Origin: an uncultured bacterium
Lineage (GTDB): Bacteria; Bacillota; Clostridia; Oscillospirales; CAG-272
Length of the DNA: 64,000 bases
Assembly: GCA_949282345.1 (NCBI GenBank)
Contig: CASDOQ010000048.1
Location: 17,309-81,308, forward strand
Reading direction: 5' to 3'
In this document: positions 3,395 through 62,242 of the stretch, one piece after another
Numbering within the stretch: the stretch's first letter is position 1
Layout of the letters: each line of letters starts with the position of its first letter
Notes under the pieces: model-generated
What the model was told of the DNA's origin: nothing
Seen by the model: the letters and a program-made list of their open reading frames with translations, nothing else
Database searches by the model: none
Translations under genes and position numbers: made by a program

Positions 3395-4243
3395 ATGAAA
3401 AAAACTGCACTCGTGGTCATGGCGGCGGGCATGGGGAGCCGCTTCGGCGGGATGAAGCAGATCGCCCCTTTGGGTCCTGACGGACAGATCATCATTGATT
3501 ACTCGGTATTCGATGCGGTGCGGGCGGGCTTTGATAAGGCCGTCCTCATTATCAAAAAAGAAAACGAAGAGGATTTCCGTGCGGTGGCTGGCCGCCGGAT
3601 CGAGAAGCTGATCGACGTGGAATACGTCTTTCAGCGTCCCGACGCACTTCCGGCCGGATTTTTGCTTCCCGAAGGGCGTACCAAGCCGTGGGGGACGGGT
3701 CATGCCGTACTTTCTGCGCGGGAGGCGGTCGGGGAGATGCCCTTTGCCGTCATCAACGCGGATGATTTTTACGGCCGTGCTTCCTATCAGCTGATCCATG
3801 AAACGCTGATCGGCGAAGAGCCGGAATGCATGGTCGGATTTGAACTCGGAAAGACCCTTACCGAGAGCGGAACGGTCAGCCGCGGCGTCTGCCGGATCGA
3901 GGACGGTCTTCTCCGTTCGGTTACCGAGCACACGGCGCTGGATAAAAATAGCGGCATTCCGCTCGATACGATCGTTTCGATGAACCTTTGGGGCTTTTCT
4001 CCCCGTATTTTCGCAACGCTGGAACGCGACTTCACGGAATTTCTCCGCACGATGAAAAATCCGATGAAGGATGAGTTCTATCTCCCCTTTGTGGTCGATT
4101 CCATGATCCGGAACGAGGGGGCGCGGTTCCGCGTTCTGCGCACGCCGGAGCGTTGGTACGGCGTGACCTACCCGGAGGATGCTGAAAGCGTGCGTGCCGC
4201 CATGCGGAAAAAGCACGAGGACGGCGAATACCCCTCCTTCTGA
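3395..4243 (+). CDS. sugar-phosphate nucleotidyltransferase family protein
   Basis: N-terminal VMAAGMGSRFGG motif (the G-x-G-T/S-R loop of nucleotidyltransferases). 282 aa. Confidence 0.7.
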   Translation: MKKTALVVMAAGMGSRFGGMKQIAPLGPDGQIIIDYSVFDAVRAGFDKAVLIIKKENEEDFRAVAGRRIEKLIDVEYVFQRPDALPAGFLLPEGRTKPWGTGHAVLSAREAVGEMPFAVINADDFYGRASYQLIHETLIGEEPECMVGFELGKTLTESGTVSRGVCRIEDGLLRSVTEHTALDKNSGIPLDTIVSMNLWGFSPRIFATLERDFTEFLRTMKNPMKDEFYLPFVVDSMIRNEGARFRVLRTPERWYGVTYPEDAESVRAAMRKKHEDGEYPSF

Positions 4244-4283
4244 TCCCGGTTTTCGGTTTTGCGTGTTTTGTATCGATGAGACA

Positions 4284-4317
4284 GGCGGATGCCCCGTGCA
4301 TCCGCCTTTTCGCTTTT
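4284..4317 (+). terminator. Rho-independent terminator
   Basis: GGCGGATGC (4284-4292) pairs with GCATCCGCC (4298-4306), followed by ttttcgctttt. Confidence 0.7.
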
Positions 4318-4519
4318 CCGGCGGTCCCGGCTTGCTTTTTTGCTTCAGGTTTTTTCTTTCTTCTTCGGTTTTTGCGGAACTCATGTTTTTGCAGGGACTT
4401 TCGGCGGCAACTCTTCTCCGGCGGCGGGGCTGAGGACGACTTTCTGTTTTTTTGCGAAAGACCTTTCTTTTTTTCTGTCGGTGTGGTATACTATTCTAAT
4501 ACGAACAGGAGGAAAAAAC

Positions 4520-5722
4520 GTGAAGACCGAACAGAAAGAAAAAAATCCGCGGCTCGGCAAGGTGGGCGGGGAAGCCGTGCTGGAGGGCGTGATGATGCGC
4601 GCCGGAGAACGCTGCGCCATCGTCTGCCGGCGTGAGGACGGCAGTCTGGCCGTCCGGGAAAGGCGCTTCGTTTCGTTGCGGAAAAAACATAAAATCCTGA
4701 ATCTTCCCCTTGTGCGCGGCGTCGTTTCCTTTATCGAATCGCTGACGCTCAGCTATCAATGCCTCTCGGTCTCCGCCGATGTCATAGGAGGGGAAACCGA
4801 AGAGAGCGCGTTTGAAAAGTGGTTCCGCCGTCATCTCGGCGTTGCCTTTTTCCACGTGCTGACGGTGATCGCCGCCGTGCTCGGCGTGGTGCTGGCCGTC
4901 GGTCTTTTTCTGGCTCTGCCGCGCGAAGTCGCTCGCTGGATCGAATCGCTGACCGGGGTCTCGCTCGGCGTCTGGAAAAGCGCCGTGGAGGGCGGGCTGA
5001 AGGTCGTGATCTTCATCCTCTATCTCTGGCTCGTCTCGCTCTTCAAGGACATCCGCCGCACCTTTGCGTATCACGGGGCGGAACATAAAAGCATTGCCTG
5101 CTATGAGGCGGGCGACCCAATGACCCCCGAATATGCACGTCGGCACACCCGCTTCCATCCCCGGTGCGGCACCTCGTTTATGTTCGTGATGATCCTTCTC
5201 GGTGTGATCTTGGGATTTTTCGTCAATGCCGTTTTCCCGGGAATGCCAACCTTACTTTACACCGGGATCCGAATTCTCCTCCTCCCGGTCGTTGTTGGGT
5301 TGGGATTTGAATTCATCCTGTATGCCGGCCGGCACGAAAATTTCTTGACGCGCGTCCTTTCCGCCCCCGGCCTGTGGTTGCAGCGCATCACCACGCGCGA
5401 GCCGGATGACGGTCAGCTGGAAGTCGCACTTCTTTCGATCCGTTTTGCACTTTCCGAGGAATTCCCGGAACTTGACCGCGCGGCTTACCGTCCGGCTCCC
5501 TTTGACGGAAAGGACGGGAAGAATGATCCCGCTGGGCAGAAGCAAGAGGCCGGCTGTGAAGACCCTGCCGTAGATTCCGAAGCCGCTCCTGCCGAAAACA
5601 CGGAAAAAACTCTAAAGACCGAAAGCGCAAAAACCTCGGACGAAAGCCTCCCCGGAGCCGATGCGTCGCCCCGGGAAGAAAATGAGGCCGGGCCGGAACC
5701 GCCGGAGAACCGTACCATATGA
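4520..5722 (+). CDS. DUF1385-family membrane protein (usual partner of prmC), with a low-complexity acidic/Pro-rich C-terminal tail
   Basis: GTG start 7 nt after AGGAGG. GGEAVLEGVMMR signature and several TM segments. Overlaps the prmC start (ATGA). Confidence 0.75.
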   Translation: MKTEQKEKNPRLGKVGGEAVLEGVMMRAGERCAIVCRREDGSLAVRERRFVSLRKKHKILNLPLVRGVVSFIESLTLSYQCLSVSADVIGGETEESAFEKWFRRHLGVAFFHVLTVIAAVLGVVLAVGLFLALPREVARWIESLTGVSLGVWKSAVEGGLKVVIFILYLWLVSLFKDIRRTFAYHGAEHKSIACYEAGDPMTPEYARRHTRFHPRCGTSFMFVMILLGVILGFFVNAVFPGMPTLLYTGIRILLLPVVVGLGFEFILYAGRHENFLTRVLSAPGLWLQRITTREPDDGQLEVALLSIRFALSEEFPELDRAAYRPAPFDGKDGKNDPAGQKQEAGCEDPAVDSEAAPAENTEKTLKTESAKTSDESLPGADASPREENEAGPEPPENRTI

Positions 5723-6525
5723 AATTTTCCGCGCTGCGTGCCGCGTTGGCGGGGGCGGGGATCGAGGAAGCCGAGAATGAGGCGCGCCTGCTCTTTTCGC
5801 ATTTTTCGGGATGCCCGCTGTCGGCTTTATACGGTATCGATCCCGACTGCGCCCTTCCTGCCCTGGAAGCCGCGCTGACCCGCCGCCTGCAACGCGAGCC
5901 GCTCGCGTATATCCTCGGACAGGCTGATTTTTATCGACAGCGCTATGCGGTGGGCCCGGGATGCCTGATCCCCCGCCCGGATACCGAACGGCTGGTGGAA
6001 CTTGCGGTGAGCCTTCTGCCCGCCGGCGCGCACTTTGCCGACCTTTGTACCGGGATCGGCACGGTGGCGCTCTCTGTTCTCTGCGATCGCGGCGATACGA
6101 CGGCCGCCGGTTTTGAACTTTCGGAGGAATCGCTGGAATACGCGCGCCTGAACCGGAAAAAATACGGGATGGAGGAACGCTTCTCGCTCGTCCGTGCCGA
6201 CCTGCTCCGATCTGAACCGACCGGGATCTACGATGCGATCCTTTCGAACCCGCCGTATATCCCCACGGGCGACCTGGCGGGGCTTTCGCCCGAGGTGGGA
6301 CACGAGCCGGCCGGCGCACTGGACGGCGGTGCGGACGGCATGACCTTTTACCGCCGTTTCCTCGGCTTTACGCCGCATTTGCGGGCGGGGGGATTCTTCC
6401 TCTTCGAGTGCGGCTACGACGAGGAGGAAAAAATCGCGGAGCTGGCGCGGGAGCGGGGATTTTCCTTTACTGCGTACCGCGATTACGGAAAGAACTTCCG
6501 CGTGGCGCTCCTGCGCCGGGGCTGA
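5719..6525 (+). CDS. prmC: peptide chain release factor N5-glutamine methyltransferase
   Basis: NPPY motif (ILSNPPYIP), a SAM-binding fold pattern, and DUF1385 immediately upstream. Confidence 0.9.
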   Translation: MKFSALRAALAGAGIEEAENEARLLFSHFSGCPLSALYGIDPDCALPALEAALTRRLQREPLAYILGQADFYRQRYAVGPGCLIPRPDTERLVELAVSLLPAGAHFADLCTGIGTVALSVLCDRGDTTAAGFELSEESLEYARLNRKKYGMEERFSLVRADLLRSEPTGIYDAILSNPPYIPTGDLAGLSPEVGHEPAGALDGGADGMTFYRRFLGFTPHLRAGGFFLFECGYDEEEKIAELARERGFSFTAYRDYGKNFRVALLRRG

Positions 6526-6707
6526 CGGCGTTTCGACCTGCTTCCGTACGGCGTGTTTTTGGCTACTTGTTACGGTCGATCGGTTCGGTTGACCGGTTTT
6601 TGATTCATCCTTATTTTCGGTTTGTTTGCTTTTTCGGCTTTCCTGCTTTTCTGCCGCTTTGCGGGGCAAAAGGCATCTCTCGGCATATACTGAACCGAGG
6701 TGATAGC

Positions 6708-7733
6708 ATGAAAGTCATACTTCTTTTCGGCGGAAAGAGTGAGGAATACGAGATCTCGCTCCGCAGTGCCGCCGCCATTCTCCCGGCACTTCGATCCGGG
6801 CATACACCCTTCCCCGTGGGGATCACCCGTGAGGGAAAGTGGTACGCCTGCCCGGAGGCATCGGCAGAAACGATCCGCGAGGACCGCTGGCAGGAGGGGA
6901 AACTCTTTCCCGTGACCTTTGACCCGAACGGCTCATCTTTTCTTTTTGACGGGAATCGGGTCTTTGCCGATTGCGTATTTCCCCTTCTGCATGGGACGAA
7001 CGGAGAGGACGGGCGCGTACAGGGGCTTCTCGATATCCTCGGGATCCCCTACGTCGGTTGCGGGACGCGGACCGGCGCGTTGGGGATGGATAAATCAGCC
7101 GTGAAGACGCTGGCCGCCTCCGCAGGCGTTCCGGTGGCGCGCGGACTCGAGGTCCGCGCCGGGGAGCTCTGCGACCCCCGGACCGTCGCGCGGGTAGAGG
7201 AGCTCCTCGCCTATCCGCTCTTTGTCAAACCCGTGCTTTCGGGTTCTTCGCGCGGGAGCGGCCGGGTAGGGAACCGTGAGGAACTGATCCCCGCGCTTCG
7301 CGCGGCCTGCGCCTTCGGCGGCCGGGCGATCTGTGAGGAACTGATCCGCGGAGCCGAAGTCGAGTACGCGCTTCTCGAACGCGACGGACAGCTCATCGGC
7401 AATACCGTCGGAGAAATAGATCCGGACGCCGTGTTTTACGATTACGACGCCAAATATAAGAGCCATTCCTCCCGGATCTTCATCCCGGCGCGAGTCGGCT
7501 CGCGCGCCATGGCCAAAGTGCGCGAATACGGCAGGCGTCTTTTTCATCTGCTCGGCTGCCGGGGGCTTTCCCGCCTGGATTTCTTCGTCCGGGAAAACGG
7601 GGAGGTCGTGTTCAACGAGATCAATACGATGCCGGGGTTCACCGACATCAGTATGTACCCGATGCTAATGCATTTTGAGGGGCTTTCTTTGCCGGAAGTA
7701 CTTGACGTCTTGCTGAAAGATGCCATCTCGTAA
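6708..7733 (+). CDS. ddl: D-alanine--D-alanine ligase
   Basis: Starts MKVILLFGGKSEEYEISLRSA and contains an ATP-grasp region. The start was moved to the internal ATG. Confidence 0.9.
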   Translation: MKVILLFGGKSEEYEISLRSAAAILPALRSGHTPFPVGITREGKWYACPEASAETIREDRWQEGKLFPVTFDPNGSSFLFDGNRVFADCVFPLLHGTNGEDGRVQGLLDILGIPYVGCGTRTGALGMDKSAVKTLAASAGVPVARGLEVRAGELCDPRTVARVEELLAYPLFVKPVLSGSSRGSGRVGNREELIPALRAACAFGGRAICEELIRGAEVEYALLERDGQLIGNTVGEIDPDAVFYDYDAKYKSHSSRIFIPARVGSRAMAKVREYGRRLFHLLGCRGLSRLDFFVRENGEVVFNEINTMPGFTDISMYPMLMHFEGLSLPEVLDVLLKDAIS

Positions 7734-7736
7734 AGT

Positions 7737-8516
7737 ATGGTTGGCATTTTTGATAGCGGGGTGGGCGGATTGACCGCGCTGGCCGCGCTCCGCCGTTTCT
7801 GCCCGCTCTGCGACGTTGCCTACTTCGGAGATACGGCGCATCTGCCCTACGGGAGCCGTTCCGAGGGGACGATCATGCATTACGCCACGGCGGCTGTCTC
7901 CACATTGGCGGCACTCTCGCCGGAGGCGGTGTTGGTTGCCTGCGGTACGGTCAGCACGGTCTGCCTGCCGAAACTTGCGGAGGGCTATCGCTTCCCGGTC
8001 TTCGGCATTGCGGAGGCGGGAACGGCGGCGGCGTTGGCCGCCGCGCCGCATGGGCGGATCGCGGTTCTCGGGACCGAGGCAACGATCCGGACAGGCGTCT
8101 TTTCCCGGATGATACTGGCCCGCCGCCCCGACGCCGTTCTGACCTGCCTTGCCTGCCCGATGTTCGTCTTTCTGGCCGAGAGCGGGATGAACCGTCCCGA
8201 TGACCCGATCGCCCGGCTGGCGGTGGCACGGACCCTTGCCCCCCTGCTTTCCAATCCCCCCGAGGCGATCCTCCTCGGCTGTACGCACTTCCCGTGGCTC
8301 TCCTCGCTGATCTCTCCGCTTTTTCCCGATGCGGCGCTGATCGATTGCGGTGCGGCGGCCGCCCGTGCGCTTTCGCTTCGTCTCCGTTTCCCTGCCGGGC
8401 AGGGAAAGACCTGTTTTTATATTACCGACAGTGCGGCCGCTTTTCAGCGCGCGGCACGCGCCGTATCCGGCCGGGTGCCGGAGGGGGAGTTTTTTGAGGT
8501 TCCGCCTGCCGAATGA
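7737..8516 (+). CDS. murI: glutamate racemase
   Basis: Starts MVGIFDSGVGGLT, with the two catalytic Cys contexts (ACGT, GCTH). Confidence 0.9.
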   Translation: MVGIFDSGVGGLTALAALRRFCPLCDVAYFGDTAHLPYGSRSEGTIMHYATAAVSTLAALSPEAVLVACGTVSTVCLPKLAEGYRFPVFGIAEAGTAAALAAAPHGRIAVLGTEATIRTGVFSRMILARRPDAVLTCLACPMFVFLAESGMNRPDDPIARLAVARTLAPLLSNPPEAILLGCTHFPWLSSLISPLFPDAALIDCGAAAARALSLRLRFPAGQGKTCFYITDSAAAFQRAARAVSGRVPEGEFFEVPPAE

Positions 8517-8601
8517 CCGGGCGAAGAGAAAACGCCGGCCGGAAAAGCCGCTTTGCAAAAGCGGGAGAAACGTGTAAAAAATCCGAAAGGAAGGAATAAA
8601 T

Positions 8602-9045
8602 ATGTCAAAATACAGAAGAGGAAGGATCAACGATGCGGTGGCCGAGGAACTGGCCGTTGCGCTCCGGGATGCGCGTGATCCGCGCATCCTTGAGAATTTC
8701 GTTTCGGTAACGCGGGCAGAAGTCGCTCCCGATCTGAAGGTCGCGCGGATATACTATTCTGCTCTCGGCGACAGCGCCGCGGCAGGAGAAGGAATGCGTG
8801 CCGCCGCCCCAATGCTCCGGCGGCATCTTGCCATGACGCTGAATATGCGTATCACGCCGGAACTTTTGTTTTATGCGGACGGCTCGATCGCGCACGGGGC
8901 CCGCATTGCGAAGATCCTTTCGGATCTCGGGCTTGAGGACTCCGGGAAAAAAGACTCCGGGGATGCGGTTCCCGGGAATGAAGATCCGGCCGAGACGACC
9001 CCGACTGACGGAAAAGCCGGAAGCGCGGAAGGGGGAGAAGGGTGA
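8602..9045 (+). CDS. rbfA: ribosome-binding factor A with an acidic C-terminal extension
   Basis: RbfA-like N-terminus (RINDAVAEELAVALRD...). 147 aa. Confidence 0.85.
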   Translation: MSKYRRGRINDAVAEELAVALRDARDPRILENFVSVTRAEVAPDLKVARIYYSALGDSAAAGEGMRAAAPMLRRHLAMTLNMRITPELLFYADGSIAHGARIAKILSDLGLEDSGKKDSGDAVPGNEDPAETTPTDGKAGSAEGGEG

Positions 9046-52670: not shown

Positions 52671-54389
52671 ATGCATCGCTATCAACCCGGTACCACCGTG
52701 GCGGGCCATTATACGATTACCGGCCTTCTCGGAAGCGGGGGTACTTCCTCGGTTTACCGTGCGCGGGACGCGCTGATGAACCGTACCGTTGCCATCAAAA
52801 TACTGGATAAGGACAACGCCCGTCTGTCGGCCCGCGGCTTTTCCGTCGAGTCACGGGCGGCGGCCGTCCTTTCTCACCCGAATATCGTCAACGTGTATGA
52901 CATCCTGGACACCTCGGATGAAAAGTATATCATCATGGAATATATTTACGGGATCACGTTGCGCGAATATCTCGATCATCATGGGCATCTGTCGGTAAAG
53001 GAGAGCATCAGCTGCGCCCGACAGGTTCTCGCCGCGCTGAACGCCGCGCACAGCCATGGGATCGTTCACCGTGATATCAAACCGGGAAATATTCTGATCA
53101 CCACAGAAGGGCGCATCAAGGTGACCGACTTCGGGATTGCCCGTCTGCCGGGCAAGGACAGCTTCCTGATGCCCGACCGCACGGTAGGGACGGTGCATTA
53201 TATCAGCCCCGAGCAGGCCGCCGGCGGCAGTGTGGACGAGCGGAGCGACCTGTATTCTCTCGGGATCGTGCTCTATGAGATGCTGACCGGCCGCCGCCCC
53301 TTTGAAGCGGCCGACCCCGCCGAGGTCCTTTCGATGCAGAGGACGGCCCGTCCGACACCGCCTACCTGTCTGAATCCCGATATCCCCGGCGAGGTTGAAA
53401 AGATCATCCTCTGCGCGCTCGAAAAGGATCCGGCCGCCCGCTTTGACAGCGCGGCCGAAATGATCCGGCTTTTAGACAAGCTCCCCGGACATTCGCTCAC
53501 CGGGGCTGTCCGTCCGTTGGTGGCCGACACCTCGGCCTATCGCCGGATGACAGAAAAGAATAATGAAAGCACCGAACACGACCTGCCCCGCGTTCTCGGA
53601 AACCGCCGTACCATCCCCGAAAAGAAGGTGCCGGTCGGGAAGGTGCCGCTGGTGGGGGAAGTACCGCTTTCGCGCCCTGTGGTTTCCCCTGCCCGGAATA
53701 CCGCGAAAAAAGAGGAGAAGAAACGCGAATTTGCCGAGAAGCTGGCGGCCTCGGAGCCCTCTGCCGCACCGTATGCGGAACGTGACGTTCTTGCTTCTTT
53801 CACGGCGCACGACACGGTGGATATCATGAATCTTTCCTCTTCCGCCCGTACCGCCGAGGCATATACCGATGATTTTTCTCCTCTGCAAAGAGTTCCGATC
53901 GGGGGGCAGAAAAACGCCGGCGAGGCACCCGGGGAACAACCCCGCCGGGAAACGTTGAAAGTGAGAAATGCCGCCGCTCCCGAGGCCCGACAGCGGGGGG
54001 ACGACGGGCATTTTCCCGGCCGGGAGAAAAAAGAGGCGACCCCCTCCCCGGGAAAGAGCCGCCCGTCCGGGAAAAAGCCGAGTTCGGTTGCGGGAGACGG
54101 CCGTCCGTATGAAATACTGGCTTTGGTGGCGGCCGCCGTGCTCTTGCTCATCCTCGTGGTTTCAATCGCCGTCAATGCCTCGAAGGAAAGAGCCGCCGGT
54201 GTCTCTTCGCCGGGGCAGTCCGTTGCCTCGGTTCTGCCGTCGGCGGATCCGGAATCTCTGACCGACGCCGGGAGAAATCCGGGCGTTTTTCGGGCGGACG
54301 GCGCGGAGGCCGTAGCACTTGGCGCCGGTCATCGCCTGTTCACGGCGACCCGGGACGCATCGGCCTTTTTGCGGGGAGTGACTCTATGA
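52671..54389 (+). CDS. Hanks-type Ser/Thr protein kinase (PrkC/PknB-like) with one TM helix and a short ectodomain lacking PASTA repeats
   Basis: Kinase motifs VAIK, HRDIKPGN, DFGIA and SPEQ. TM helix ILALVAAAVLLLILVVSIAV, followed by only about 70 residues. Confidence 0.88.
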   Translation: MHRYQPGTTVAGHYTITGLLGSGGTSSVYRARDALMNRTVAIKILDKDNARLSARGFSVESRAAAVLSHPNIVNVYDILDTSDEKYIIMEYIYGITLREYLDHHGHLSVKESISCARQVLAALNAAHSHGIVHRDIKPGNILITTEGRIKVTDFGIARLPGKDSFLMPDRTVGTVHYISPEQAAGGSVDERSDLYSLGIVLYEMLTGRRPFEAADPAEVLSMQRTARPTPPTCLNPDIPGEVEKIILCALEKDPAARFDSAAEMIRLLDKLPGHSLTGAVRPLVADTSAYRRMTEKNNESTEHDLPRVLGNRRTIPEKKVPVGKVPLVGEVPLSRPVVSPARNTAKKEEKKREFAEKLAASEPSAAPYAERDVLASFTAHDTVDIMNLSSSARTAEAYTDDFSPLQRVPIGGQKNAGEAPGEQPRRETLKVRNAAAPEARQRGDDGHFPGREKKEATPSPGKSRPSGKKPSSVAGDGRPYEILALVAAAVLLLILVVSIAVNASKERAAGVSSPGQSVASVLPSADPESLTDAGRNPGVFRADGAEAVALGAGHRLFTATRDASAFLRGVTL

Positions 54390-55300
54390 CCTTTGAGGGA
54401 CGGATCCTTTGCGGGGTCGGCGGGCTGTACGAAGTGCGTCTTGTGCGGGAGGGTCTGCCCGAGCATATCTTTTGCCGCGCACGCGGTTCCCTCAAAAAAA
54501 ATGACGGCAGGCTCCTGTGCGGGGACACGGTGCGCGTCTCGGAGGAGAACGGCGAGGCGGTGATCGACGCCTGCCTCCCGCGGAAAAACAGCCTGATCCG
54601 GCCGCCGCTTGCCAATCTGGATTTTCTTTTCCTTGTGACGGCGGCAACCAGCCCGGCCCCTTCGTATTCCACGATCGATAAGCTGACGGCCATTGCCGTC
54701 CATAACGGCATCCGGCCGGTGGTGGTCGTGACGAAAGCAGACCTTTCGGCCGAACTGACCGAAAGGACTGAAGCCATATACCGCAGTGCCGGGTTCCCGG
54801 TCTTTTCGGTAGCGGCCGGCGGCGATATTTCGACGCTTTCCGCGTATATTGCCGGAACGGTCCGGGACGGCGTGTGCGCCGCCTTCGCCGGGGCTTCCGG
54901 AGTTGGAAAGTCCACGCTCATGAACCGCCTTTTTCCGCATCTTTCTCTGACCACCGGAGAAGTCAGCCGTAAGATCGAGCGCGGCCGGCACACGACCCGC
55001 AGCGCGAAGCTCTACGAGATCGGGGACGGCGAGCAAGCCGGTTTTTTAGCCGATACGCCCGGTTTCAGTATGCTGGATTTTCTGCGCTTTGATTTCTTTA
55101 CGCTCGACGATCTGCCGTCCACGTTTCCCGAGTTTTTGCCCTTCTACCGGGAGTGCAGGTATGCCGACTGCACGCATACAGGAGAACGCGAATGCGGCGT
55201 GGCGCAGGCCGTCCGGGACCAAAAGATCCCGGCATCCCGGCATGAGAGTTATTGCGAACTCTATAAGATCCTGCGCGAAAAAGCACACCGTTACGATTGA
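54386..55300 (+). CDS. rsgA: ribosome small-subunit-dependent GTPase A
   Basis: Circularly permuted GTPase (VVTKADL, GASGVGKST) with a C-terminal zinc knuckle (CRYADCTHTGERECG). Confidence 0.92.
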   Translation: MTFEGRILCGVGGLYEVRLVREGLPEHIFCRARGSLKKNDGRLLCGDTVRVSEENGEAVIDACLPRKNSLIRPPLANLDFLFLVTAATSPAPSYSTIDKLTAIAVHNGIRPVVVVTKADLSAELTERTEAIYRSAGFPVFSVAAGGDISTLSAYIAGTVRDGVCAAFAGASGVGKSTLMNRLFPHLSLTTGEVSRKIERGRHTTRSAKLYEIGDGEQAGFLADTPGFSMLDFLRFDFFTLDDLPSTFPEFLPFYRECRYADCTHTGERECGVAQAVRDQKIPASRHESYCELYKILREKAHRYD

Positions 55301-55489: not shown

Positions 55490-56011
55490 TTATTCCGGCA
55501 GGATCAGCCCGTACCCCTGATCGCACCGTTTATAGACAACGCCGACTTTTCCGCTATCGGCGTCCGAAAAGACGAAAAATTGGTGTTCCAGCAGATTCAT
55601 TTGGAGAATGGCTTCCTCCACCGTCATCGGCTTCAGGGAAAAGGTCTTCCGGCGGATCAGGGGCAGTTCCTCCTCGATCTCCTCTTCGGCTTCTCCGAGC
55701 GAACGGACGAACGCGCCCTCGCGGATCCGTCTTTCGAGCCGGGTCTTGTTTTTCCGTATCTGCCCTTCCAAGGTCTCAACGGCGCGGTCCAGCGCGTTCT
55801 GGAAGGTCTCGTCCTCTTCTTCGCTCCGATAGAGGGTTCCGCCGTAATTTATCGTAATTTCCACGATCTTGTCCTGCCGCCGCGTTTTGAAGGTGACGTA
55901 CGCGGTCGTGTCCGCGCCGAAATAGCGATCGAACTTGGCGAGCTTCTTTTCCGTCAGTTCCAGAAGCGAATCCCGGACGTTCATTTGTCGTGCAACCGTT
56001 GTGATCTTCAT
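55490..56011 (-). CDS. hpf: ribosome hibernation-promoting factor (long HPF)
   Basis: 173 aa with a sigma-54-modulation/RaiA-like N-domain and a C-terminal dimerisation domain (...VVYKRCDQGYGLI). Confidence 0.9.
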   Translation of the reverse strand: MKITTVARQMNVRDSLLELTEKKLAKFDRYFGADTTAYVTFKTRRQDKIVEITINYGGTLYRSEEEDETFQNALDRAVETLEGQIRKNKTRLERRIREGAFVRSLGEAEEEIEEELPLIRRKTFSLKPMTVEEAILQMNLLEHQFFVFSDADSGKVGVVYKRCDQGYGLILPE

Positions 56012-56144: not shown

Positions 56145-56183
56145 ATAAAAAACGGCCGATATCGCCAGGGCGAACGGCCGGTT
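56145..56183 (-). terminator. terminator of the kinase-like/PqqD/S26 operon
   Basis: On the minus strand: CCGGCCG...CGGCCG stem followed by TTTTTTATCG. Confidence 0.6.
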
Positions 56184-56708
56184 TTATTTTTTTTGCAGAC
56201 GGCGCGTGATCGATGCGGCTCTCCGGCGCGCGGGGAAAGCGAGGCGAAGGAGCGCGGCGTGCGGGCGGGAAAGCTTTTTTTCTCCCCGAAAGAGGCAGAC
56301 GGCCGTGGCGAGGATCTCTTCCCGGCAGACGGTTTCGGTATCGGAGGAGGCGTGGGCGTCTCCGTGCAGGAGGAAAAGCCCGTCTTTTTTTCCGATCACC
56401 CGGTGCAGGATATAAGAGCCGTTCGGGATTTTTGCCAGCACGATATCGCCGCGTCGGACGGTCTCACAGCGTCGGAGCAGGACCGAGTCTTTTCCCTCGC
56501 GCAGGAGTGGGAGCATACTGACTCCGCGCGGCCAAAGGCGGAAGCATCCGCCGGCGTTCAGGACTTCAGAGATCAGCGGCATCAATTCGTCGAGTGAGCG
56601 CTTCTCAAGTTCTTTCGGGGGCGCGGGCACTTTTTTCCCTGCTGTTGATCCTTCGGTTCCGTCAAAGGGGTGATCTTGGGGGCTTTCCCCGGGCAAAGGG
56701 GCACTCAT
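56184..56708 (-). CDS. S26B (SipW/Sec11/archaeal-type, Ser-His) signal-peptidase-fold protein with no membrane anchor
   Basis: GVSMLP (Ser box), RRGDIVL, ILHRVIG (His box in place of the bacterial KR) and HGDAH. The 60-aa hydrophilic N-terminus has no TM segment. ATGA overlap with the PqqD gene. Confidence 0.7.
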   Translation of the reverse strand: MSAPLPGESPQDHPFDGTEGSTAGKKVPAPPKELEKRSLDELMPLISEVLNAGGCFRLWPRGVSMLPLLREGKDSVLLRRCETVRRGDIVLAKIPNGSYILHRVIGKKDGLFLLHGDAHASSDTETVCREEILATAVCLFRGEKKLSRPHAALLRLAFPARRRAASITRRLQKK

Positions 56709-56971
56709 CCGGCGAGGAACCCGCCTTCCCGCAAGCGGGCACAGAAGGCGGCTACGTCGGCCGCCGCGGCCTCCTCCGTGATGTCGTATTCGCGGAGCAG
56801 AGCCGCCGTCAACGCCTCCTCCGTCGTATCCTCGCTGAGCAGGCGGAAGAGAAATTCGGCAGTTTCATTCAGCCGGATCATCGAGCCGAGTTTGGCCAGT
56901 TCGGGTGCGGCGGCAACGGCGTAGGTTTCTTTCCCGATGCGGTGCAACTGAAATCCGTTTTTGATCTTCAC
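56705..56971 (-). CDS. PqqD-family protein (RiPP recognition element-like peptide chaperone)
   Basis: 88 aa with ...LNETAEFLFRLLSEDTTEEALTAALLREYDITEEAAAADVAAFCARLREGGFL, the typical PqqD layout. GTG start overlaps the upstream stop (GTGA). Confidence 0.75.
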   Translation of the reverse strand: MKIKNGFQLHRIGKETYAVAAAPELAKLGSMIRLNETAEFLFRLLSEDTTEEALTAALLREYDITEEAAAADVAAFCARLREGGFLAG

Positions 56972-57693
56972 GGTACGATACCATCCTTTACGAAAGTGTC
57001 ATAGGCGCACTGTGCGGCCTCGGGCCTTTTGGTGCAGAGAAAGCGGTAGACGGGCAGGGTCTCGAGAAACGAGGAAAGCAGGGGCAGGAGGGCGGAAAGT
57101 TCGCCCGGATCGAGCGGCGCCTGCACAGAGGAGAAGAGCAGGGGGAAGGCTTCCTCCGCCCGCAGGGGAAGGAGGCAGTCACGGTCGCTCCGCTCCAAAA
57201 AGCAGACGGCGCGCACCGGGGCAGAACCGACCGACCCGTGTCGCTCTTTCCCGCAGAAGGGGGTCCCGTAACCGTAAAAACTCTCCCCCCGCCGCCGGAC
57301 GAGCGGTTTATCGCCGTTGATATAGCGGAAGATCTCGGGATAGGCGGCGCGCATCAGCTCGGCCTGCGTGCTTTTTCCGGTGCCGCTCGGCGCGGCGTAG
57401 GCAATCCCCGCCCCCGCCAGTGTGAAAAAGGCGGCATGGAAGAGAAATCCCCCCTTTTGCACCAGCAGGTGGGAGATCTTCCGATAGAGCGCGAGTGCTT
57501 CCAGATATCCGAGGCGCGCCGTTTTGTCGCTCGGCAGACCGCCGGCCGCCTCTTCGGCAAGGATCTCTTCTTCACTCACCTGCAGGGGGATGGCGTCGGG
57601 AGCGTCCCCGGCAAACGGGGCATAAAGGAGTTCTGTATGCGGATATCGATTCTCAAGACGGAGCGGAATATCCGCTAAACGGCAAAGAAGCAT
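56968..57693 (-). CDS. HPr-kinase-C-terminal-like P-loop protein (putative peptide/protein kinase)
   Basis: 241 aa with Walker A APSGTGKST. Size and layout resemble the HprK-related kinases found next to PqqD-like genes. Strong RBS AGGGAGG. Confidence 0.6.
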   Translation of the reverse strand: MLLCRLADIPLRLENRYPHTELLYAPFAGDAPDAIPLQVSEEEILAEEAAGGLPSDKTARLGYLEALALYRKISHLLVQKGGFLFHAAFFTLAGAGIAYAAPSGTGKSTQAELMRAAYPEIFRYINGDKPLVRRRGESFYGYGTPFCGKERHGSVGSAPVRAVCFLERSDRDCLLPLRAEEAFPLLFSSVQAPLDPGELSALLPLLSSFLETLPVYRFLCTKRPEAAQCAYDTFVKDGIVP

Positions 57694-57711
57694 GATACCT
57701 CCCTGGCAGGA

Positions 57712-57750
57712 TATGCAAAAACCCGTTGGGAAACAACGGGTTTTTATTTT
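57712..57750 (-). terminator. hairpin terminator/attenuator between the mini-lipoprotein gene and the three-gene operon
   Basis: ACCCGTTG / CAACGGGT stem with T-runs on both sides. Only about 20 nt separate it from the next RBS. Confidence 0.7.
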
Positions 57751-57776
57751 GCTATCGATCGGTTGGCGCGAAGGGT

Positions 57777-57992
57777 TCAGTCGTCAACGCCTTTCCATTC
57801 CGATTGGTCGGGATCGGGATCTCCGGCAGGCGTACTCGCCGTGGTCGTGGGCGGGACGGTGGGATCCTTCAGGGCTTTTGTAGTGACAGCGGTTGTGGTT
57901 GCGGTGTCGCCGGTACAGTCGCACGAACCCATGAACACGGCCATGGAAAGCAGAAGCGCAAGAATCAAAACAAATACAGTGAGTTTTTTCAT
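57777..57992 (-). CDS. 71-aa pre-lipoprotein with a Thr/Pro-rich, acidic-tailed mature region
   Basis: Signal peptide MKKLTVFVLILALLLSMAVFMGS|C (lipobox-like). The mature 48 aa contain 12 Thr. Consensus promoter upstream. Confidence 0.65.
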   Translation of the reverse strand: MKKLTVFVLILALLLSMAVFMGSCDCTGDTATTTAVTTKALKDPTVPPTTTASTPAGDPDPDQSEWKGVDD

Positions 57993-58031
57993 GGGTCTAC
58001 CTCATTCGAAAGAATATTGTTTTCCATATGA

Positions 58032-58061
58032 ATTATACCATCTCACCCTCGGCTTTGTCAA
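58032..58061 (-). promoter_or_regulatory. near-consensus extended -10 sigma-A promoter of the mini-lipoprotein gene
   Basis: On the minus strand: TTGACA, 18-nt spacer (ending TGg), TATAAT. Confidence 0.7.
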
Positions 58062-58212: not shown

Positions 58213-59502
58213 ATGGCGGTATCGGAAAAAATCGGGAAGGGCGAACGGACACTCCGGGAGGACGTCGGGCAAGAGGACGGGCGTTTTTGCGCTCTTTGCG
58301 GGGAGGTCCTGCGGGCGGGAGGCGCGCCGCTCTTTTCTCCGCCGTCCTTTTATCCGGCCACGGTCGGATTCCTCGGGATCCTGGAGGCGGTCCGCACGGC
58401 GCGCCGGAGCGTATATCTCGAATATTATCGCATCCGGGGCGGCAGGGCCTGGCAGATGCTCCTTCCCCTGCTCCTCGACCGGGCAAAAGCCGGCGTCCGG
58501 GTATGCGTCAGTTGCGATGCCTTCGGCTCACGCCCTGCCATGGGACGGGAGGATATACGTGCCCTGCGTGCGGCCGGGGCGGAGGTCAGGTTTGGATACC
58601 ATCAGGGCGGCTCCTTCTTAGCACGCGACCATCGGAAGATCGCGGTCGTTGACGGGCGGATCGCTTTTCTCGGCGGATTCAATCTGGCGGATGAATATTT
58701 CTCCCCCGATAAGATCCGCGATGCGGCTTTCTGCCTTCGGGGGGAAGGGGCCGTGGCCGCCGAGTGGCTCTTCCTCCGACGGTGGGCGCGGGCCGATCTG
58801 TCCGCTTTCCGGCGGGAAAGCGCGGATGTGCCGGATTTTTCGGGAGAGCTGCCGAACCTTCGGGAAAGACGGCGCGACCGTGCAAAGACCGAGCCCGCCC
58901 CGGCTATCGGGTCGGCCTTCCGGGCGGGGCGCATGGCGGGGGTTCGGCTTGCCCCGATCCTGCAGACCGAGAGCGGCGGGGAACTCTTCCCGTATCCGGC
59001 GGCCTCCGGCCGTCTCCCCGTCCGCAAATCCCCCTCTCCCTGCGGCTATCTCTTCGGCGGGGGGCCCCGTGCGCCGATCGGGGAGCGGGTCATGGTGTCT
59101 CTTTTTGATGCCGCGCGCGAATCGGTCACGATCCTGACGCCCTATCTTTTCCCGACGAAGCCTGTCCGCGAGGCGTTGTACCGCGCTGTGCGACGAGGCG
59201 TGAATGTCCGGCTGATCCTGCCTGCCCGTTACGATATCCTCCCCGGGGCGCTGCTCAGCCGTTCGTGGTACCGTCCTCTTTTGGCGGCGGGAGTGCGCCT
59301 GCGCGCTTATCGCGGCGGCTTTTTGCACGAAAAACTCATTCTGATCGACCGCTGCGCCGTCCTTGGCGGAAGTTATAACCTTGACCGCATCAGCCTGCGG
59401 ATGAACTACGAGGACGGTCTTCTGCTTTTTGACCCGGCGGCGATCACTCCCGTTTTCGACCACGTGGCCGAAACCGAAGAAAAAACCTTTCCAATCTTCT
59501 GA
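58213..59502 (+). CDS. phospholipase-D-superfamily protein (cardiolipin-synthase-like, two HKD motifs, no N-terminal TM helices)
   Basis: HRKIAVVDGRIAFLGGFN and HEKLILIDRCAVLGGSYN motifs. Confidence 0.8.
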   Translation: MAVSEKIGKGERTLREDVGQEDGRFCALCGEVLRAGGAPLFSPPSFYPATVGFLGILEAVRTARRSVYLEYYRIRGGRAWQMLLPLLLDRAKAGVRVCVSCDAFGSRPAMGREDIRALRAAGAEVRFGYHQGGSFLARDHRKIAVVDGRIAFLGGFNLADEYFSPDKIRDAAFCLRGEGAVAAEWLFLRRWARADLSAFRRESADVPDFSGELPNLRERRRDRAKTEPAPAIGSAFRAGRMAGVRLAPILQTESGGELFPYPAASGRLPVRKSPSPCGYLFGGGPRAPIGERVMVSLFDAARESVTILTPYLFPTKPVREALYRAVRRGVNVRLILPARYDILPGALLSRSWYRPLLAAGVRLRAYRGGFLHEKLILIDRCAVLGGSYNLDRISLRMNYEDGLLLFDPAAITPVFDHVAETEEKTFPIF

Positions 59503-59648
59503 CCGGCGCGCCTTTTACGGGGAGGCGAGAAAAGAGAGGAATGACGAAAAGAAGCGAAAGGCGGGATAAGACGAGACGAAAAACGCAAAGAAGGAAAGAG
59601 AAAAATCATGTTTGCCCGCCGTATGTCGCCGCTCGGCGGCTTTTTTTG

Positions 59649-59677
59649 TTGACAAAGCGCGAGCGGTGTGGTATCCT
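59649..59677 (+). promoter_or_regulatory. sigma-A-like promoter of the flavin reductase/ABC pair
   Basis: TTGACA, 17-nt spacer (ending TGg), TATCCT. A hairpin plus T7 terminator lies just upstream. Confidence 0.55.
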
Positions 59678-59723
59678 TGAGTGCAGAGACGGGGATCGAC
59701 CCCGGGAAAGACCACAGGAGTAC

Positions 59724-60323
59724 ATGATGGAAGAAAAAAACGAACGAATACTGCTTCAGCCGTCCACGCTGCTGGCGCCCGCCCCGGCGGCTCTCGTCAG
59801 CGTGCGGTGCGGAGAAGAAGAGAATCTTTTGACCGTTGCCTGGTGCGGGATCGTAAATTCCCACCCGCCGATGACCTATATTTCGGTTCGCCCGGAACGC
59901 CATTCCTACCCCATGCTGAAAGAGAGCCGGGAATTCGTCCTGCATCTGACGACGGCGGCGCTCTGCCGCGCGGTCGACTACTGCGGGATCTACACCGGCG
60001 CCAAGGTCAATAAATTTGAGAAATGCGGTCTGCATCCGATTCCGTCGCGCGCGGTGGCGGCCCCTACGCTCGAAGAGGCGCCGCTGGCGCTCGAATGCCG
60101 CGTCCGCGAGATCCTCCCGCTCGGTTCTCACGATATGTTCCTCTCGGACATCGTGTCGGTGACGGCGCGGCCCGAACTTTTTGACGAGCGCGGGCGGCTC
60201 TGCCTGGAGCGCGCCGGGCTTTGCGCCTATGCGCACGGGGAATATTACGCCCTCGGCAAATTTCTCGGAAAGTTCGGCTTTTCCGCCGCGCGCCGCGGAA
60301 AGAAGGGGGAAAAGAAAAAATGA
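59724..60323 (+). CDS. flavin reductase-like (FMN-binding split-barrel) protein
   Basis: 199 aa with ...LLTVAWCGIVNSHPPMTYISVRPERHSY.... ATG follows GGAG. Confidence 0.75.
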   Translation: MMEEKNERILLQPSTLLAPAPAALVSVRCGEEENLLTVAWCGIVNSHPPMTYISVRPERHSYPMLKESREFVLHLTTAALCRAVDYCGIYTGAKVNKFEKCGLHPIPSRAVAAPTLEEAPLALECRVREILPLGSHDMFLSDIVSVTARPELFDERGRLCLERAGLCAYAHGEYYALGKFLGKFGFSAARRGKKGEKKK

Positions 60324-62242
60324 AGTGGCCATTGATACGCCGTTTTTTCGGATATTACGCGCCCTACCGACGGCTTTTTTTCCTCGATCTTCTCGCCGCC
60401 GTGCTTCTTTCGGCATGTAACCTCGTCTATCCGATCTTTTCGCGCTCGATCATCAACGTGTATATTCCAAACGGCAACCTGCGCATGATCTTTTTGTTTG
60501 CGGGACTTCTGCTGACGGTCTATCTCGCCAAGACCGGTCTTACTTATTTCGTTTCGCGTTTCGGGCATTACGTGGGAGCCGAAATGCAGGCGGATATGCG
60601 GCGCGACCTCTTCCGCCATATGGAAAAACTCCCGTTTTCTTTCTTTGACAACAACAAGACCGGGAGTCTGATGTCGCGGATCACCAACGACCTGTTTGAC
60701 ATTTCGGAACTGGCGCACCACGGCCCGGAGGATCTCTTGGTCTCGGTCCTCCTTTTTATCGGTTCTTTTATCTTGATGGCGGGGATCAATCTCCCGCTGG
60801 CCTGTATCAGCATGGCGATCGTGCCGGTGATGGTGCTCTTTGCTACGTCGCGTCGGAGCAAAATGCGCAAGGCTTTCCGCCGGAGCCGGGAGGAGATCGC
60901 GGAGGTGAACGCCGAGATCGAAAACAGCATTTCCGGCATCCGCGTGAGCCGCGCATTCACTTCGGTTGCTACCGAGGAAAAGAAATTCGATGAAGCCAAC
61001 GGCCGTTTCCTCTCTTCACGCAAGACGGCCTATGACGCCATGGCGGAATACCACGCAGGACTCGGGCTCTGCACCGATCTTCTCAATGTGATCGTTCTGC
61101 TGGCGGGCGCGCTGTTTGTCCTGAACGGAAGAATCAATTACGGCGACCTTGTCGCGTTCTTACTCTATGTGAACATATTTGTTCAACCGATCACCAAGCT
61201 CATCAACTTTTCAGAACAACTGGAAGACGGAATGACCGGCTTCACCCGGTTTGTTGAGATCATGGACACGCCGCCGGAGGCAGACAGTGATGGCGCCGCC
61301 GTTCTCGGCCCGGTGAAGGGAGAGATCGAATTTCAGAACGTGAGCTTTTCCTATGGGGAAGACGAGGTTTTGCACGATATTTCGGTCCGGATCCCGGCAG
61401 GGAAAACGCTGGCGCTGGTCGGTCCTTCCGGCGGAGGGAAAACCACGCTTTGCCATCTGCTCCCCCGGTTTTACGAGTTGTCGGGCGGCCGGATCCTTCT
61501 GGACGGGCAGGACATCCGCTCGGTCACGCGGGAATCTTTGCGCCGGAATATCGGGATTGTTTCGCAAGACGTTTTCCTTTTCAATGCCGATATTGCCGAC
61601 AATATCCGCTACGGCAAGCCTGACGCCACCGATGAAGAAGTGCGCCGCGCCGCGCGGCTGGCCGATATTGACGAATACGCCTCTTCTTTGCCGGAGGGGT
61701 ATCATACCATCGTCGGAGAGCGGGGCGTGAAACTTTCCGGCGGGCAGAAGCAGCGCATTGCCATCGCCCGCGCTTTCCTGAAAAACCCGCCGGTGCTGAT
61801 CCTGGATGAAGCCACCAGCGCGCTTGACAACATCACGGAACAGATGATCCAGAAGAGTCTTGCGGAACTGTCCGACGGCCGGACGGTCATCGTGGTGGCG
61901 CATCGCCTCTCGACCGTGCGCCGCGCCGATGAGATCCTGTATATAGATAAAGACGGGATCCGCGAACGTGGCACGCATGAAGAGCTGATGAAAAAGGCGG
62001 CTTGTATGCCGCCCTCGCCGGCCGGAACCAGGAAGAAGACCTTCTCCCGACCCCGGTCGGCTGATTCTGAAAAGAAAAACCCGCGCGCCGGCTCTTTGGA
62101 TAGAATTCTATCAAGCAGACGCTTGAAAAACAGAAACATTTCAGCAAAAATCCGCCCTCTGTGCAGAGGGCGGACTTTTTCACGCGGGAGAAAGATTATT
62201 TTCCGATGTCGGCCAGCATACGTTGCAGATTTTCCATGCTGA
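60320..62242 (+). CDS. ABC exporter (fused TMD-NBD, MsbA/MdlB-like); as sequenced, the 3' end is out of frame from about 61996 (native end probably 62064)
   Basis: Six TM helices, Walker A GPSGGGKTT, LSGGQKQR, and Walker B ILDEATS. The canonical tail GGLYAALAGRNQEEDLLPTPVG* appears only in the -1 frame after ATG-AAA-AAG. Confidence 0.85.
   Translation: MKWPLIRRFFGYYAPYRRLFFLDLLAAVLLSACNLVYPIFSRSIINVYIPNGNLRMIFLFAGLLLTVYLAKTGLTYFVSRFGHYVGAEMQADMRRDLFRHMEKLPFSFFDNNKTGSLMSRITNDLFDISELAHHGPEDLLVSVLLFIGSFILMAGINLPLACISMAIVPVMVLFATSRRSKMRKAFRRSREEIAEVNAEIENSISGIRVSRAFTSVATEEKKFDEANGRFLSSRKTAYDAMAEYHAGLGLCTDLLNVIVLLAGALFVLNGRINYGDLVAFLLYVNIFVQPITKLINFSEQLEDGMTGFTRFVEIMDTPPEADSDGAAVLGPVKGEIEFQNVSFSYGEDEVLHDISVRIPAGKTLALVGPSGGGKTTLCHLLPRFYELSGGRILLDGQDIRSVTRESLRRNIGIVSQDVFLFNADIADNIRYGKPDATDEEVRRAARLADIDEYASSLPEGYHTIVGERGVKLSGGQKQRIAIARAFLKNPPVLILDEATSALDNITEQMIQKSLAELSDGRTVIVVAHRLSTVRRADEILYIDKDGIRERGTHEELMKKAACMPPSPAGTRKKTFSRPRSADSEKKNPRAGSLDRILSSRRLKNRNISAKIRPLCRGRTFSRGRKIIFRCRPAYVADFPC
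62146..62180. terminator. bidirectional terminator
   Basis: TCCGCCCTCT / AGAGGGCGGA stem flanked by AAAAA and TTTTT. It lies inside the out-of-frame tail of the ABC ORF. Confidence 0.8.

Follow-up and report, generated by a model that had tools for sequence, protein, structure and literature searches.

An LPP-Related Kinase–Adaptor–Peptidase Operon in Gut Clostridia with an Upstream Pre-Lipoprotein as Candidate Substrate

Introduction

The subject of this work is a four-gene cassette on the minus strand of a 64,000-nucleotide stretch of contig CASDOQ010000048.1, which originates from an uncultured bacterium of the Clostridia (Oscillospirales, CAG-272) and is called the window hereafter; all coordinates are those of the window unless a related locus is named. 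Read along the minus strand, a small open reading frame (ORF) is followed by a hairpin, a Shine-Dalgarno sequence AGGGAGG and then three ORFs (241, 88 and 174 aa) whose translation is coupled through GTGA and ATGA overlaps. The three larger products are a P-loop kinase of the HprK fold (K), a discrete PqqD-type adaptor (B) and an anchorless signal-peptidase homologue (S), while the small ORF encodes a Thr- and Pro-rich pre-lipoprotein. Homology, gene order and catalytic residues make it very probable that the trio is a “dock, phosphorylate, cut” machine of the kind formed by LppK, LppB and LppS in the biosynthesis of linear polyphosphorylated peptides (LPPs), which form a class of peptides made by the ribosome and modified after translation (RiPPs). 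The cassette as a whole is read here, with modest confidence, as the operon of a Clostridial branch of LPP for which the upstream pre-lipoprotein would be the likeliest substrate.

An earlier note on this DNA had listed the ORFs, promoter, lipobox, hairpin, ribosome-binding site, gene overlaps, Walker A motif and Ser and His boxes, all of which are present on the minus strand where it placed them. It had also described the cassette as an orphan of unpredictable chemistry, a description that has to be abandoned: since K, B and S are homologous, and in the same order, to LppK, LppB and LppS, the cassette is no orphan and adjoins a described RiPP class. LPP itself is a months-old class with no known final product or function and has so far been studied only in soil Bacilli. 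According to the present analysis, the gut microbiota of humans and ruminants contains a very large uncharacterized sister family, which extends to at least 585 species.

The LPP Pathway as a Reference

The LPP clusters of Bacilli have the order lppA-K-B-S-D-N and produce linear polyphosphorylated peptide RiPPs (Popov et al., Nat Commun 2026, PMC13381572). In this pathway, the HprK-like kinase LppK puts one to four phosphates on Ser3 of the core, and LppS, an anchorless SipW homologue with the triad S29/H68/D93, removes the leader only when the latter is presented by LppB, a discrete RiPP recognition element (RRE) that holds a YxxP motif via N33, D70 and F74 (PMC13381572). The leader of the precursor reads YxxPxVLxHQxIxFETxxS (Px9Fx[T/A]), and the kinase group was defined by matches to TIGR04249 (ScmC), TIGR04352 and, less frequently, TIGR04355 (PMC13381572). 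The clusters show a patchy distribution driven by horizontal gene transfer and occupy capsule loci, and some of the listed genomes encode the precursor or the RRE elsewhere (PMC13381572). The suggestion in the earlier note that the Clostridial trio could bind, phosphorylate and cleave a substrate corresponds to what has been shown experimentally for the homologous LppB, LppK and LppS (PMC13381572). A Paenibacillus lpp cluster (L092), whose LppS is 97% identical to the published LppS, served for the comparisons that follow.

Both systems have K, B and S in the same order behind a gene of about 70 aa, and in both the small protein contains a low-complexity “core” and its gene is followed by a hairpin. 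The likeness extends to the enzymes: the kinase is of the ScmC type and has an HprK fold, the discrete RRE is of the PqqD type with equivalents of N33, D70 and F74, and the SipW-like Ser/His/Asp peptidase has no anchor. The differences are of equal interest. In place of the YxxP…FET leader, the small protein of the window has the signal peptide of a lipoprotein and, at its C-terminus, a conserved Trp tail; no homologue of LppN (PF14907) is found in the window; the exporter lies outside the operon; and sequence identities are confined to 22–28%. Moreover, the family of the window belongs to gut Clostridia and shows a vertical, housekeeping-like synteny, in contrast to the patchy LPP clusters of capsule loci. 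It follows that the cassette departs from a canonical LPP cluster: no precursor with the YxxP…FET leader was found in the window or in about 90 related loci, LppN is missing from the window, and the only exporter is encoded in a divergent operon.

The Three Enzymes

The kinase gene (56968–57693, minus strand) encodes a 241-aa protein with the Walker A motif APSGTGKST, and the residues H86, K107 (the Walker A Lys) and D128 are invariant in its family. A precomputed annotation assigns it to PF27840 (ScmC), and its match to ScmC/HprK_rel_B is below threshold; ScmC is likewise its best NCBIfam match, at 32.7 bits against a cut-off of 125. Sequence-profile searches of the PDB returned mostly generic P-loop proteins, with the HprK/P entry 1ko7 at E 0.007, so that a fold search was needed to place the protein. 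The AlphaFold2 model has a mean predicted local distance difference test (pLDDT) score of 94.5, and Foldseek ranks HprK/P C-terminal domains first (E 4e-7), followed by phosphoenolpyruvate carboxykinase, which bears out the HprK-C-terminal-like fold suggested from the letters of the sequence. This likeness is limited to the C-terminal domain, and none of the Pfam Hpr_kinase domains matches the 241-aa protein; together with the predominance of P-loop proteins in the PDB profile search, this led to the rejection of a bona fide HprK/P identity. The kinase is 22% identical to LppK (BLASTP E 2e-8). Profile hidden Markov models (HMMs) were built for the families from the related loci, and that of the Clostridial kinase gives LppK 59 bits compared with 27 bits for the neighbouring lasso kinase. 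Both the window kinase and the Paenibacillus LppK are members of PF27840, and this shared membership, the BLASTP match, the HMM score and the fold together assign the former to the LppK type.

The adaptor gene (56705–56971, minus strand) encodes an 88-aa protein that had been taken for a PqqD-like protein and indeed matches PqqD (PF05402) at E 3.6e-16. It is 28% identical to LppB (E 2e-6), and its N35, D72 and F76 align to N33, D70 and F74, the contact residues of LppB; it is thus a discrete PqqD-type RRE of the LPP kind. The triplet N-D-F is kept in 49 of 68 RRE sequences of the family, whereas RREs of the paeninodin type have G-Q-F. The HMM of the Clostridial RRE scores LppB at 33 bits and the lasso RRE at 31 bits.

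The peptidase gene (56184–56708, minus strand) encodes a 174-aa protein, or a shorter one, with the motifs GVSMLP and ILHRVIG. It matches Peptidase_S24 at 27.7 bits, over the gathering threshold, and its best NCBIfam match is archaeal-type signal peptidase I. With LppS it shares 23% identity (E 5e-11), S64, H102 and D123 falling on S29, H68 and D93, and the HMM of the Clostridial peptidase gives LppS 70 bits. No transmembrane (TM) segment is predicted in any of the three enzymes, so the earlier description of the peptidase as anchorless holds; its hydrophilic N-terminus requires correction. Within the family, conservation does not extend to about 35 N-terminal residues of the 174-aa ORF, the conserved core beginning at approximately residue 38. 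The start codon of this ORF is also ambiguous, as 148 and 174 aa are called in two ENA records whose DNA is identical, and the start within the ATGA overlap adds some 26–35 residues that are not conserved beyond the closest relative. SipW and the archaeal/ER signal peptidases I have similar Ser and His boxes (GxSMxP, LHR and a GDN-like motif), while the window peptidase lacks a membrane anchor, has about 150 aa, is predicted to be cytoplasmic and is paired with an RRE. A membrane SipW was rejected in view of the absence of a TM segment and a SipW equivalog score of 10.9 bits against a cut-off of 190.

A relative of this peptidase, SCH01704.1 from an uncultured Ruminococcus (36% identity), appears in cluster 9 of the published sequence similarity network with an adjacent RRE and with the entry “ND” in every LPP column (PMC13381572). 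Thus, the Clostridial branch had been seen but not studied.

The Upstream Lipoprotein

The small gene (57777–57992, minus strand) occupies the slot of a precursor. It is preceded by a sigma-70-type promoter (58061–58032) consisting of TTGACA, an 18-nt spacer and TG-n-TATAAT, in which all 12 consensus positions match and an extended -10 TG is present; this is the sole perfect site in the region, where three promoter-like sites are found compared with 0.9 expected. Its 71-aa product starts with MKK…, contains a hydrophobic stretch (maximum hydropathy 2.68) and continues with the lipobox FMGS|C. This combination of a positively charged n-region, a hydrophobic h-region and a lipobox of the form [LVI][ASTVI][GAS]C predicts that the protein is lipidated. 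The mature part, 48 aa long, contains 12 Thr, 6 Pro and 8 Asp; it has the terminal letters DPDPDQSEWKGVDD, and the C-terminal tail peptide, which reads …DPDQSEWKGVDD, holds the single Trp of the protein (W66, tail SEWKGVDD).

Between the small gene and the kinase gene, an intrinsic-terminator-like hairpin with a U-run (57717–57745) is likely to act as an attenuator or read-through site. It comprises 13 bp at -16.4 kcal/mol (z = -5.4), a value matched by none of 200 shuffled sequences, and is followed by the Shine-Dalgarno sequence of the kinase gene (57704–57698), read directly from the DNA. A second terminator-like hairpin with a U-run (about 56147–56181, -16.9 kcal/mol, z = -2.5) closes the operon. 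The layout of precursor slot, terminator and enzyme genes, which the earlier note considered typical of RiPP operons, is conserved: in 11 related loci, a GC-rich hairpin with a U-run, of unrelated sequence in each, lies in the gap of 39–83 nt ahead of the kinase ribosome-binding site. This gap measures 83 nt in the window and 39–49 nt in its closest relatives. The latter distance leaves no space for a promoter, so that expression of the trio would depend there on read-through or on an initiation site within the small gene.

An upstream lipoprotein of 71–92 aa is present in every member of the window clade examined, at kinase identities of 42–75%. In the alignment of ten orthologues, the only positions without any change are M1, K2, K3, the lipobox Cys C24, one Thr, P61 and W66; the T/P-rich linker varies in both length and sequence. 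The tails of the orthologues include SEWKGVDD, PDWEPVDK, DQWRPLS, DQWNSLPQS, KEWSDPVIK, GDWGPPMN, SGWGPEEGIS, DPWSDIVK and PEWNETPFK.

The association of such proteins with the trio was also assessed by means of a broader filter, which selected ORFs with a signal peptide, a W or Y within the last 12 residues, and low-complexity residues amounting to at least 80% and T/S/P to at least 30% in the C-terminal region. Applied in six frames to 0.94 Mb of loci, this filter returned eight ORFs, all eight of which adjoin K, B or S genes, and over the 64-kb window it returned the 71-aa ORF alone. The eight comprise six upstream lipoproteins and two Big_2 proteins of 172–175 aa ending in RD[DE]GWVPGWY. 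One of the latter is encoded between the kinase and RRE genes of locus L059 (1062–3173 of that locus); the other, in L082, is a secreted protein of 172 aa ending in …RDEGWVPGWY, to which the L059 tail is nearly identical, and is encoded divergently from a B-S-N-D-K cluster.

A small lipobox ORF stands directly upstream of the kinase gene, on the same strand, in 10 of 79 genome loci, compared with an expectation of about 0.6 derived from the density of such ORFs in the background. In Acutalibacteraceae (L036, L053 and L081), the order lipoprotein-K-B-S-ABC exporter mirrors lppA-K-B-S-D, and the tails of the lipoproteins end in DPYVEDIF. Minimal versions also exist: L086 and L087 have a lipoprotein, kinase and PqqD without a peptidase, and L013 has only a lipoprotein and kinase. 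The constant partner of the lipoprotein is the kinase, and a non-random linkage between the two is supported. At the RRE position equivalent to D70 of LppB, the 14 loci with Trp tails all have Asp and the three loci with DPYVEDIF tails have Ala, which may reflect a co-variation of pocket and tail, although this possibility rests on one clade and is confounded by phylogeny. An AlphaFold2 prediction of the RRE fused to the mature lipoprotein, run on the single sequence without an alignment, was uninformative (pLDDT 52, no sheet).

In the same Acutalibacteraceae loci, genes for dockerin/EF-hand proteins of about 155 aa are located just upstream of the small lipoprotein gene (1731–2198 in L036, 7121–7594 in L053, and L081). 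These neighbours hint at a cell-surface or cellulosome context for this lineage.

Distribution and Variants of the Trio

A word-seeded search with the kinase yields 574 homologues about 240 aa in length, and a pattern scan with one genome per species finds relatives in at least 585 species. All 80 species among the matches listed are uncultured gut or rumen Clostridia, nearly all represented by metagenome-assembled genomes, and the lineages among these matches include Oscillospiraceae, Acutalibacteraceae, Lachnospiraceae, Faecalibacterium, Blautia, Roseburia and Eubacterium. Gene order was scored in the 69 loci with room downstream of the kinase gene. Kinase, PqqD and peptidase genes are contiguous and on the same strand in 46 of them, which upholds the expectation that the three genes co-occur across genomes; among the rest, nine have kinase and peptidase, three have kinase and PqqD, and nine have the kinase alone. 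The K-B-S operon is usually free-standing amid housekeeping genes (glyQS, ybaK, recN, hpf, rsgA and the like), and the clustering of all neighbouring ORFs revealed no further widely conserved partner of the trio.

Other LPP components are found at a fraction of these loci. An ABC exporter is encoded near 13 of them, in several cases directly downstream of the peptidase gene (e.g., L036, L053 and L081), and a LppN-like nucleotidyltransferase in only 5 (e.g., L017 and L082). L082, from an uncultured Eubacterium sp., holds a full LPP-like set in altered order and without a leader-type precursor (3795–8693 of that locus), namely, PqqD (4362–4685), peptidase (4689–5168), LppN-like protein (5170–6327), ABC exporter (6345–7973) and kinase (7989–8693).

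At 17 loci, a gene for a two-TM protein (219 aa; range 216–232 aa) precedes the trio, e.g., at 7243–7902 in L028, 7225–7884 in L027 and 7233–7889 in L007. This protein belongs to no Pfam family; its two TM helices are N-terminal, and its cytoplasmic part is highly conserved (…PNYFLYD.QTKRNI.VQKLTFQ…SEGKLWT…FKP.VAYKLLYDLAE…). It was considered as an alternative substrate; a terminator and then, in many of these loci, a TTGCAA…TAnAAT promoter divide its gene from the trio. In L012, a gene for a W-tail lipoprotein (675–968) lies ahead of the two-TM protein gene.

Proposed Mechanism and Its Alternatives

In the mechanism proposed here, the strong single promoter would give rise to much lipoprotein mRNA, a fraction of which would pass the hairpin and provide the enzymes. 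K, B and S would all work in the cytoplasm. There, the PqqD-like adaptor B would capture a short linear motif of the substrate protein, hand the substrate to the HprK-fold kinase K, which would phosphorylate it, and also present it to the soluble Ser/His/Asp protease S, which would cut it. The docking site is probably the C-terminal P-x(2-4)-W tail and not an N-terminal leader. By analogy with LPP, the chemistry of the cassette is likely to consist of Ser phosphorylation and adaptor-dependent cleavage. The cut by S could fall in the tail; it may also fall in the lipobox region, where a hydrophobic residue at -3 and a small one at -1 resemble the F-E-T site of LppA. Finally, the modified protein would leave via Sec and become lipid-anchored, which would expose a phosphorylated T/P-rich peptide on the cell surface. 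Bufferins and HvfA serve as a precedent for modification ahead of export: these precursors have a Sec signal, undergo modification in the cytoplasm and then take the general export route, with no pump dedicated to them. They differ in that their MNIO/DUF2063 enzymes and chemistry are unrelated and that they have signal peptidase I sites instead of a lipobox.

That the upstream lipoprotein is the client of the trio is an evenly balanced proposition, for which linkage, operon structure and the invariant tail speak. The earlier note named it the obvious candidate substrate, and its non-random linkage to the kinase agrees with this; the role remains conditional, as the protein is devoid of the LPP-type leader that the homologous adaptor binds. 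A broader idea, tentative and rather doubtful, is that gut Clostridia use an LPP-derived set on exported lipoproteins and Ig-domain proteins with T/P-rich linkers, which would be recognized by a Trp “follower” tail and, after exit via Sec, would form lipid-anchored phosphorylated surface peptides. If this were true, RRE-guided chemistry would reach from leader peptides to exported lipoproteins. Hundreds of microbiome species would then show RRE-dependent modification of a new class of substrates, with a new logic of recognition, and abundant commensals would have phosphorylated surface molecules of a new type. Otherwise, the family would still be a conserved three-gene module with a client to be found. 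A Sec/lipobox protein with a C-terminal Trp tail constitutes a concrete and testable substrate hypothesis.

Several observations weigh against the lipoprotein as substrate. The supposition that a small Thr-rich ORF is always adjacent to the trio is correct for every member of the window clade examined and fails in 69 of the 79 genome loci, which have no lipoprotein directly upstream, so that encoding a lipoprotein in cis is no general property of these loci. Together with the separate promoter of the trio in the two-TM-protein loci, these 69 loci make a substrate encoded elsewhere the rule. The lipoprotein has no [Y/W]xxPx[LVI] leader, the window tail WKGVDD has no Pro after the Trp, and no conserved Ser stands beside the Trp in the ten-orthologue alignment, while the adaptor still keeps the residues that hold YxxP in LppB. 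The parts are also separable, as L086 and L087 without S and L013 with lipoprotein and K only demonstrate. Moreover, the related loci share a phylogeny, so the enrichment figures are not independent trials and overstate independence, and the genes of these loci were called crudely, by a simple longest-ORF rule. In addition, we know of no direct precedent for the phosphorylation and cutting of a protein before Sec export and lipidation.

Part of this evidence would fit a canonical LPP-type pathway whose leader-bearing precursor is encoded elsewhere in the genome, the lipoprotein being merely a syntenic neighbour. An adjacent candidate precursor is lacking in most related loci, in many loci the trio has a promoter of its own, the N/D/F residues that bind YxxP are retained, and genomes with a distant precursor or RRE are on record (PMC13381572). 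This explanation is a serious contender and yet rather unlikely, because no ORF with a Px9Fx[T/A]/YxxP leader was found within ±8 kb of some 90 loci or in the window, the six-frame scan of the window and 91 loci (±8 kb) for [YWF]xxPx9Fx[TA] giving only chance matches in housekeeping or shadow ORFs. Moreover, tail-bearing secreted proteins were found solely beside K, B and S genes, and the promoter-less gaps of 39–49 nt in the closest relatives couple expression of the trio to the lipoprotein gene. Alternatively, the trio might be a housekeeping or regulatory module of protein modification, in which, e.g., K acts on a cellular protein and S is a processing or self-cleaving enzyme, and the lipoprotein is irrelevant or one client of several. 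A family of at least 585 species, its vertical synteny among hpf, rsgA, glyQS and recN, unlike the patchy LPP of Bacilli driven by horizontal transfer, and the existence of K-only and K+S variants would suit such a module; its probability is nevertheless low, given that the homology to a RiPP trio extends to all three proteins, that discrete PqqD domains have until now marked the recognition of peptides and that the neighbourhoods suggest no other client.

The best NCBIfam match of the 241-aa protein, ScmC, raises the question of SynChlorMet, in which a P-loop protein of PF27840 is also paired with a PqqD-like protein (ScmC/ScmD, TIGR04249/TIGR04248). Two Candidatus Blautia loci (L021, 6311–11263, and L044) have a trio flanked by two radical-SAM (Fer4_12) proteins of about 470 aa, confirmed by Pfam in L021, an arrangement that resembles a SynChlorMet-type cassette plus a peptidase. 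The window differs in its scores far under the equivalog cut-offs (ScmC as given above; ScmD, E 0.11 for the 88-aa protein), on which membership was rejected, as well as in the absence of ScmE/F radical-SAM/SPASM genes and the presence of a S24/S26 peptidase. It is thus very improbable that the cassette is a degenerate SynChlorMet-like one with radical-SAM/SPASM partners elsewhere and a P-loop protein that is not a kinase, all the more since radical-SAM neighbours occur in only 2 of 79 loci and LppK, likewise of the PF27840/TIGR04249 type, is a proven kinase. Least credible of all is that the 71-aa ORF is not a real gene and that the promoter drives the enzymes through a long structured leader. 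The protein has no database homologue in a word-seeded search and only low-complexity, sub-threshold Pfam matches; however, the orthologous ORFs of at least ten loci have diverged in DNA and linker and yet preserve the frame, the lipobox Cys and the Trp, independent pipelines call the gene, and it has its own ribosome-binding site (GAGG) and terminator. After these comparisons, an LPP-branch operon with the pre-lipoprotein as substrate continues to be the favoured reading.

Neighbouring Genes and Other Known Systems

Lasso clusters of the paeninodin type (PadeK/PbaK with a B1 RRE) also combine an HprK-fold kinase and a discrete RRE on a ribosomal peptide. The window differs from them in having no lasso cyclase or B2 protease, in a kinase family whose HMM favours LppK and in an RRE with N/D in place of G/Q. 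The earlier note had seen no cyclase or B2 protease nearby, and the phmmer searches, with a Paenibacillus cyclase and B2 as queries, concur: no B2 protease was found in any locus, and two weak Asn-synthase matches appeared 3.5–5.3 kb upstream of the kinase genes of L039 and L050. A lasso cluster was rejected on these grounds. PADLOC and Rfam scans gave no significant match (the best was PD-T4-6 at E 0.0077, with three sub-threshold Rfam matches), by which a defence system and a known riboregulator were discarded.

Regarding phosphocarrier functions, an HPr-like His15 context (GLHARPA) is found at about 17067 on the minus strand, some 40 kb from the cassette, and the 64-kb window yielded no canonical HprK Walker motif, in accordance with the original reading of both points. 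The sole radical-SAM gene called within 10 kb of the cassette sits among housekeeping genes related to ribosomes and RNA.

On the plus strand, a divergent operon (58213–62242) encodes a phospholipase D (PLD)-like protein of 429 aa with two HKD motifs, a flavin reductase and an ABC exporter of the MsbA type (60221–62242). The PLD gene is present solely in the window and its closest relative, and neither the PLD-like nor the flavin-reductase neighbour is conserved with the trio among the clade members compared. The exporter is a possible counterpart of LppD, to which it scores 298 bits, and the exporters of the window clade are the best LppD matches among all loci examined; its gene, however, belongs to a divergent operon 2.2 kb away and is absent from some members of the clade. 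Downstream of the cassette lie hpf (55490–56011), rsgA (54386–55300) and a gene for a Ser/Thr kinase without PASTA domains (52671–54389). In the matching contig L001, a PP2C phosphatase gene is located just past the Ser/Thr kinase gene, an instance of ordinary conserved synteny.

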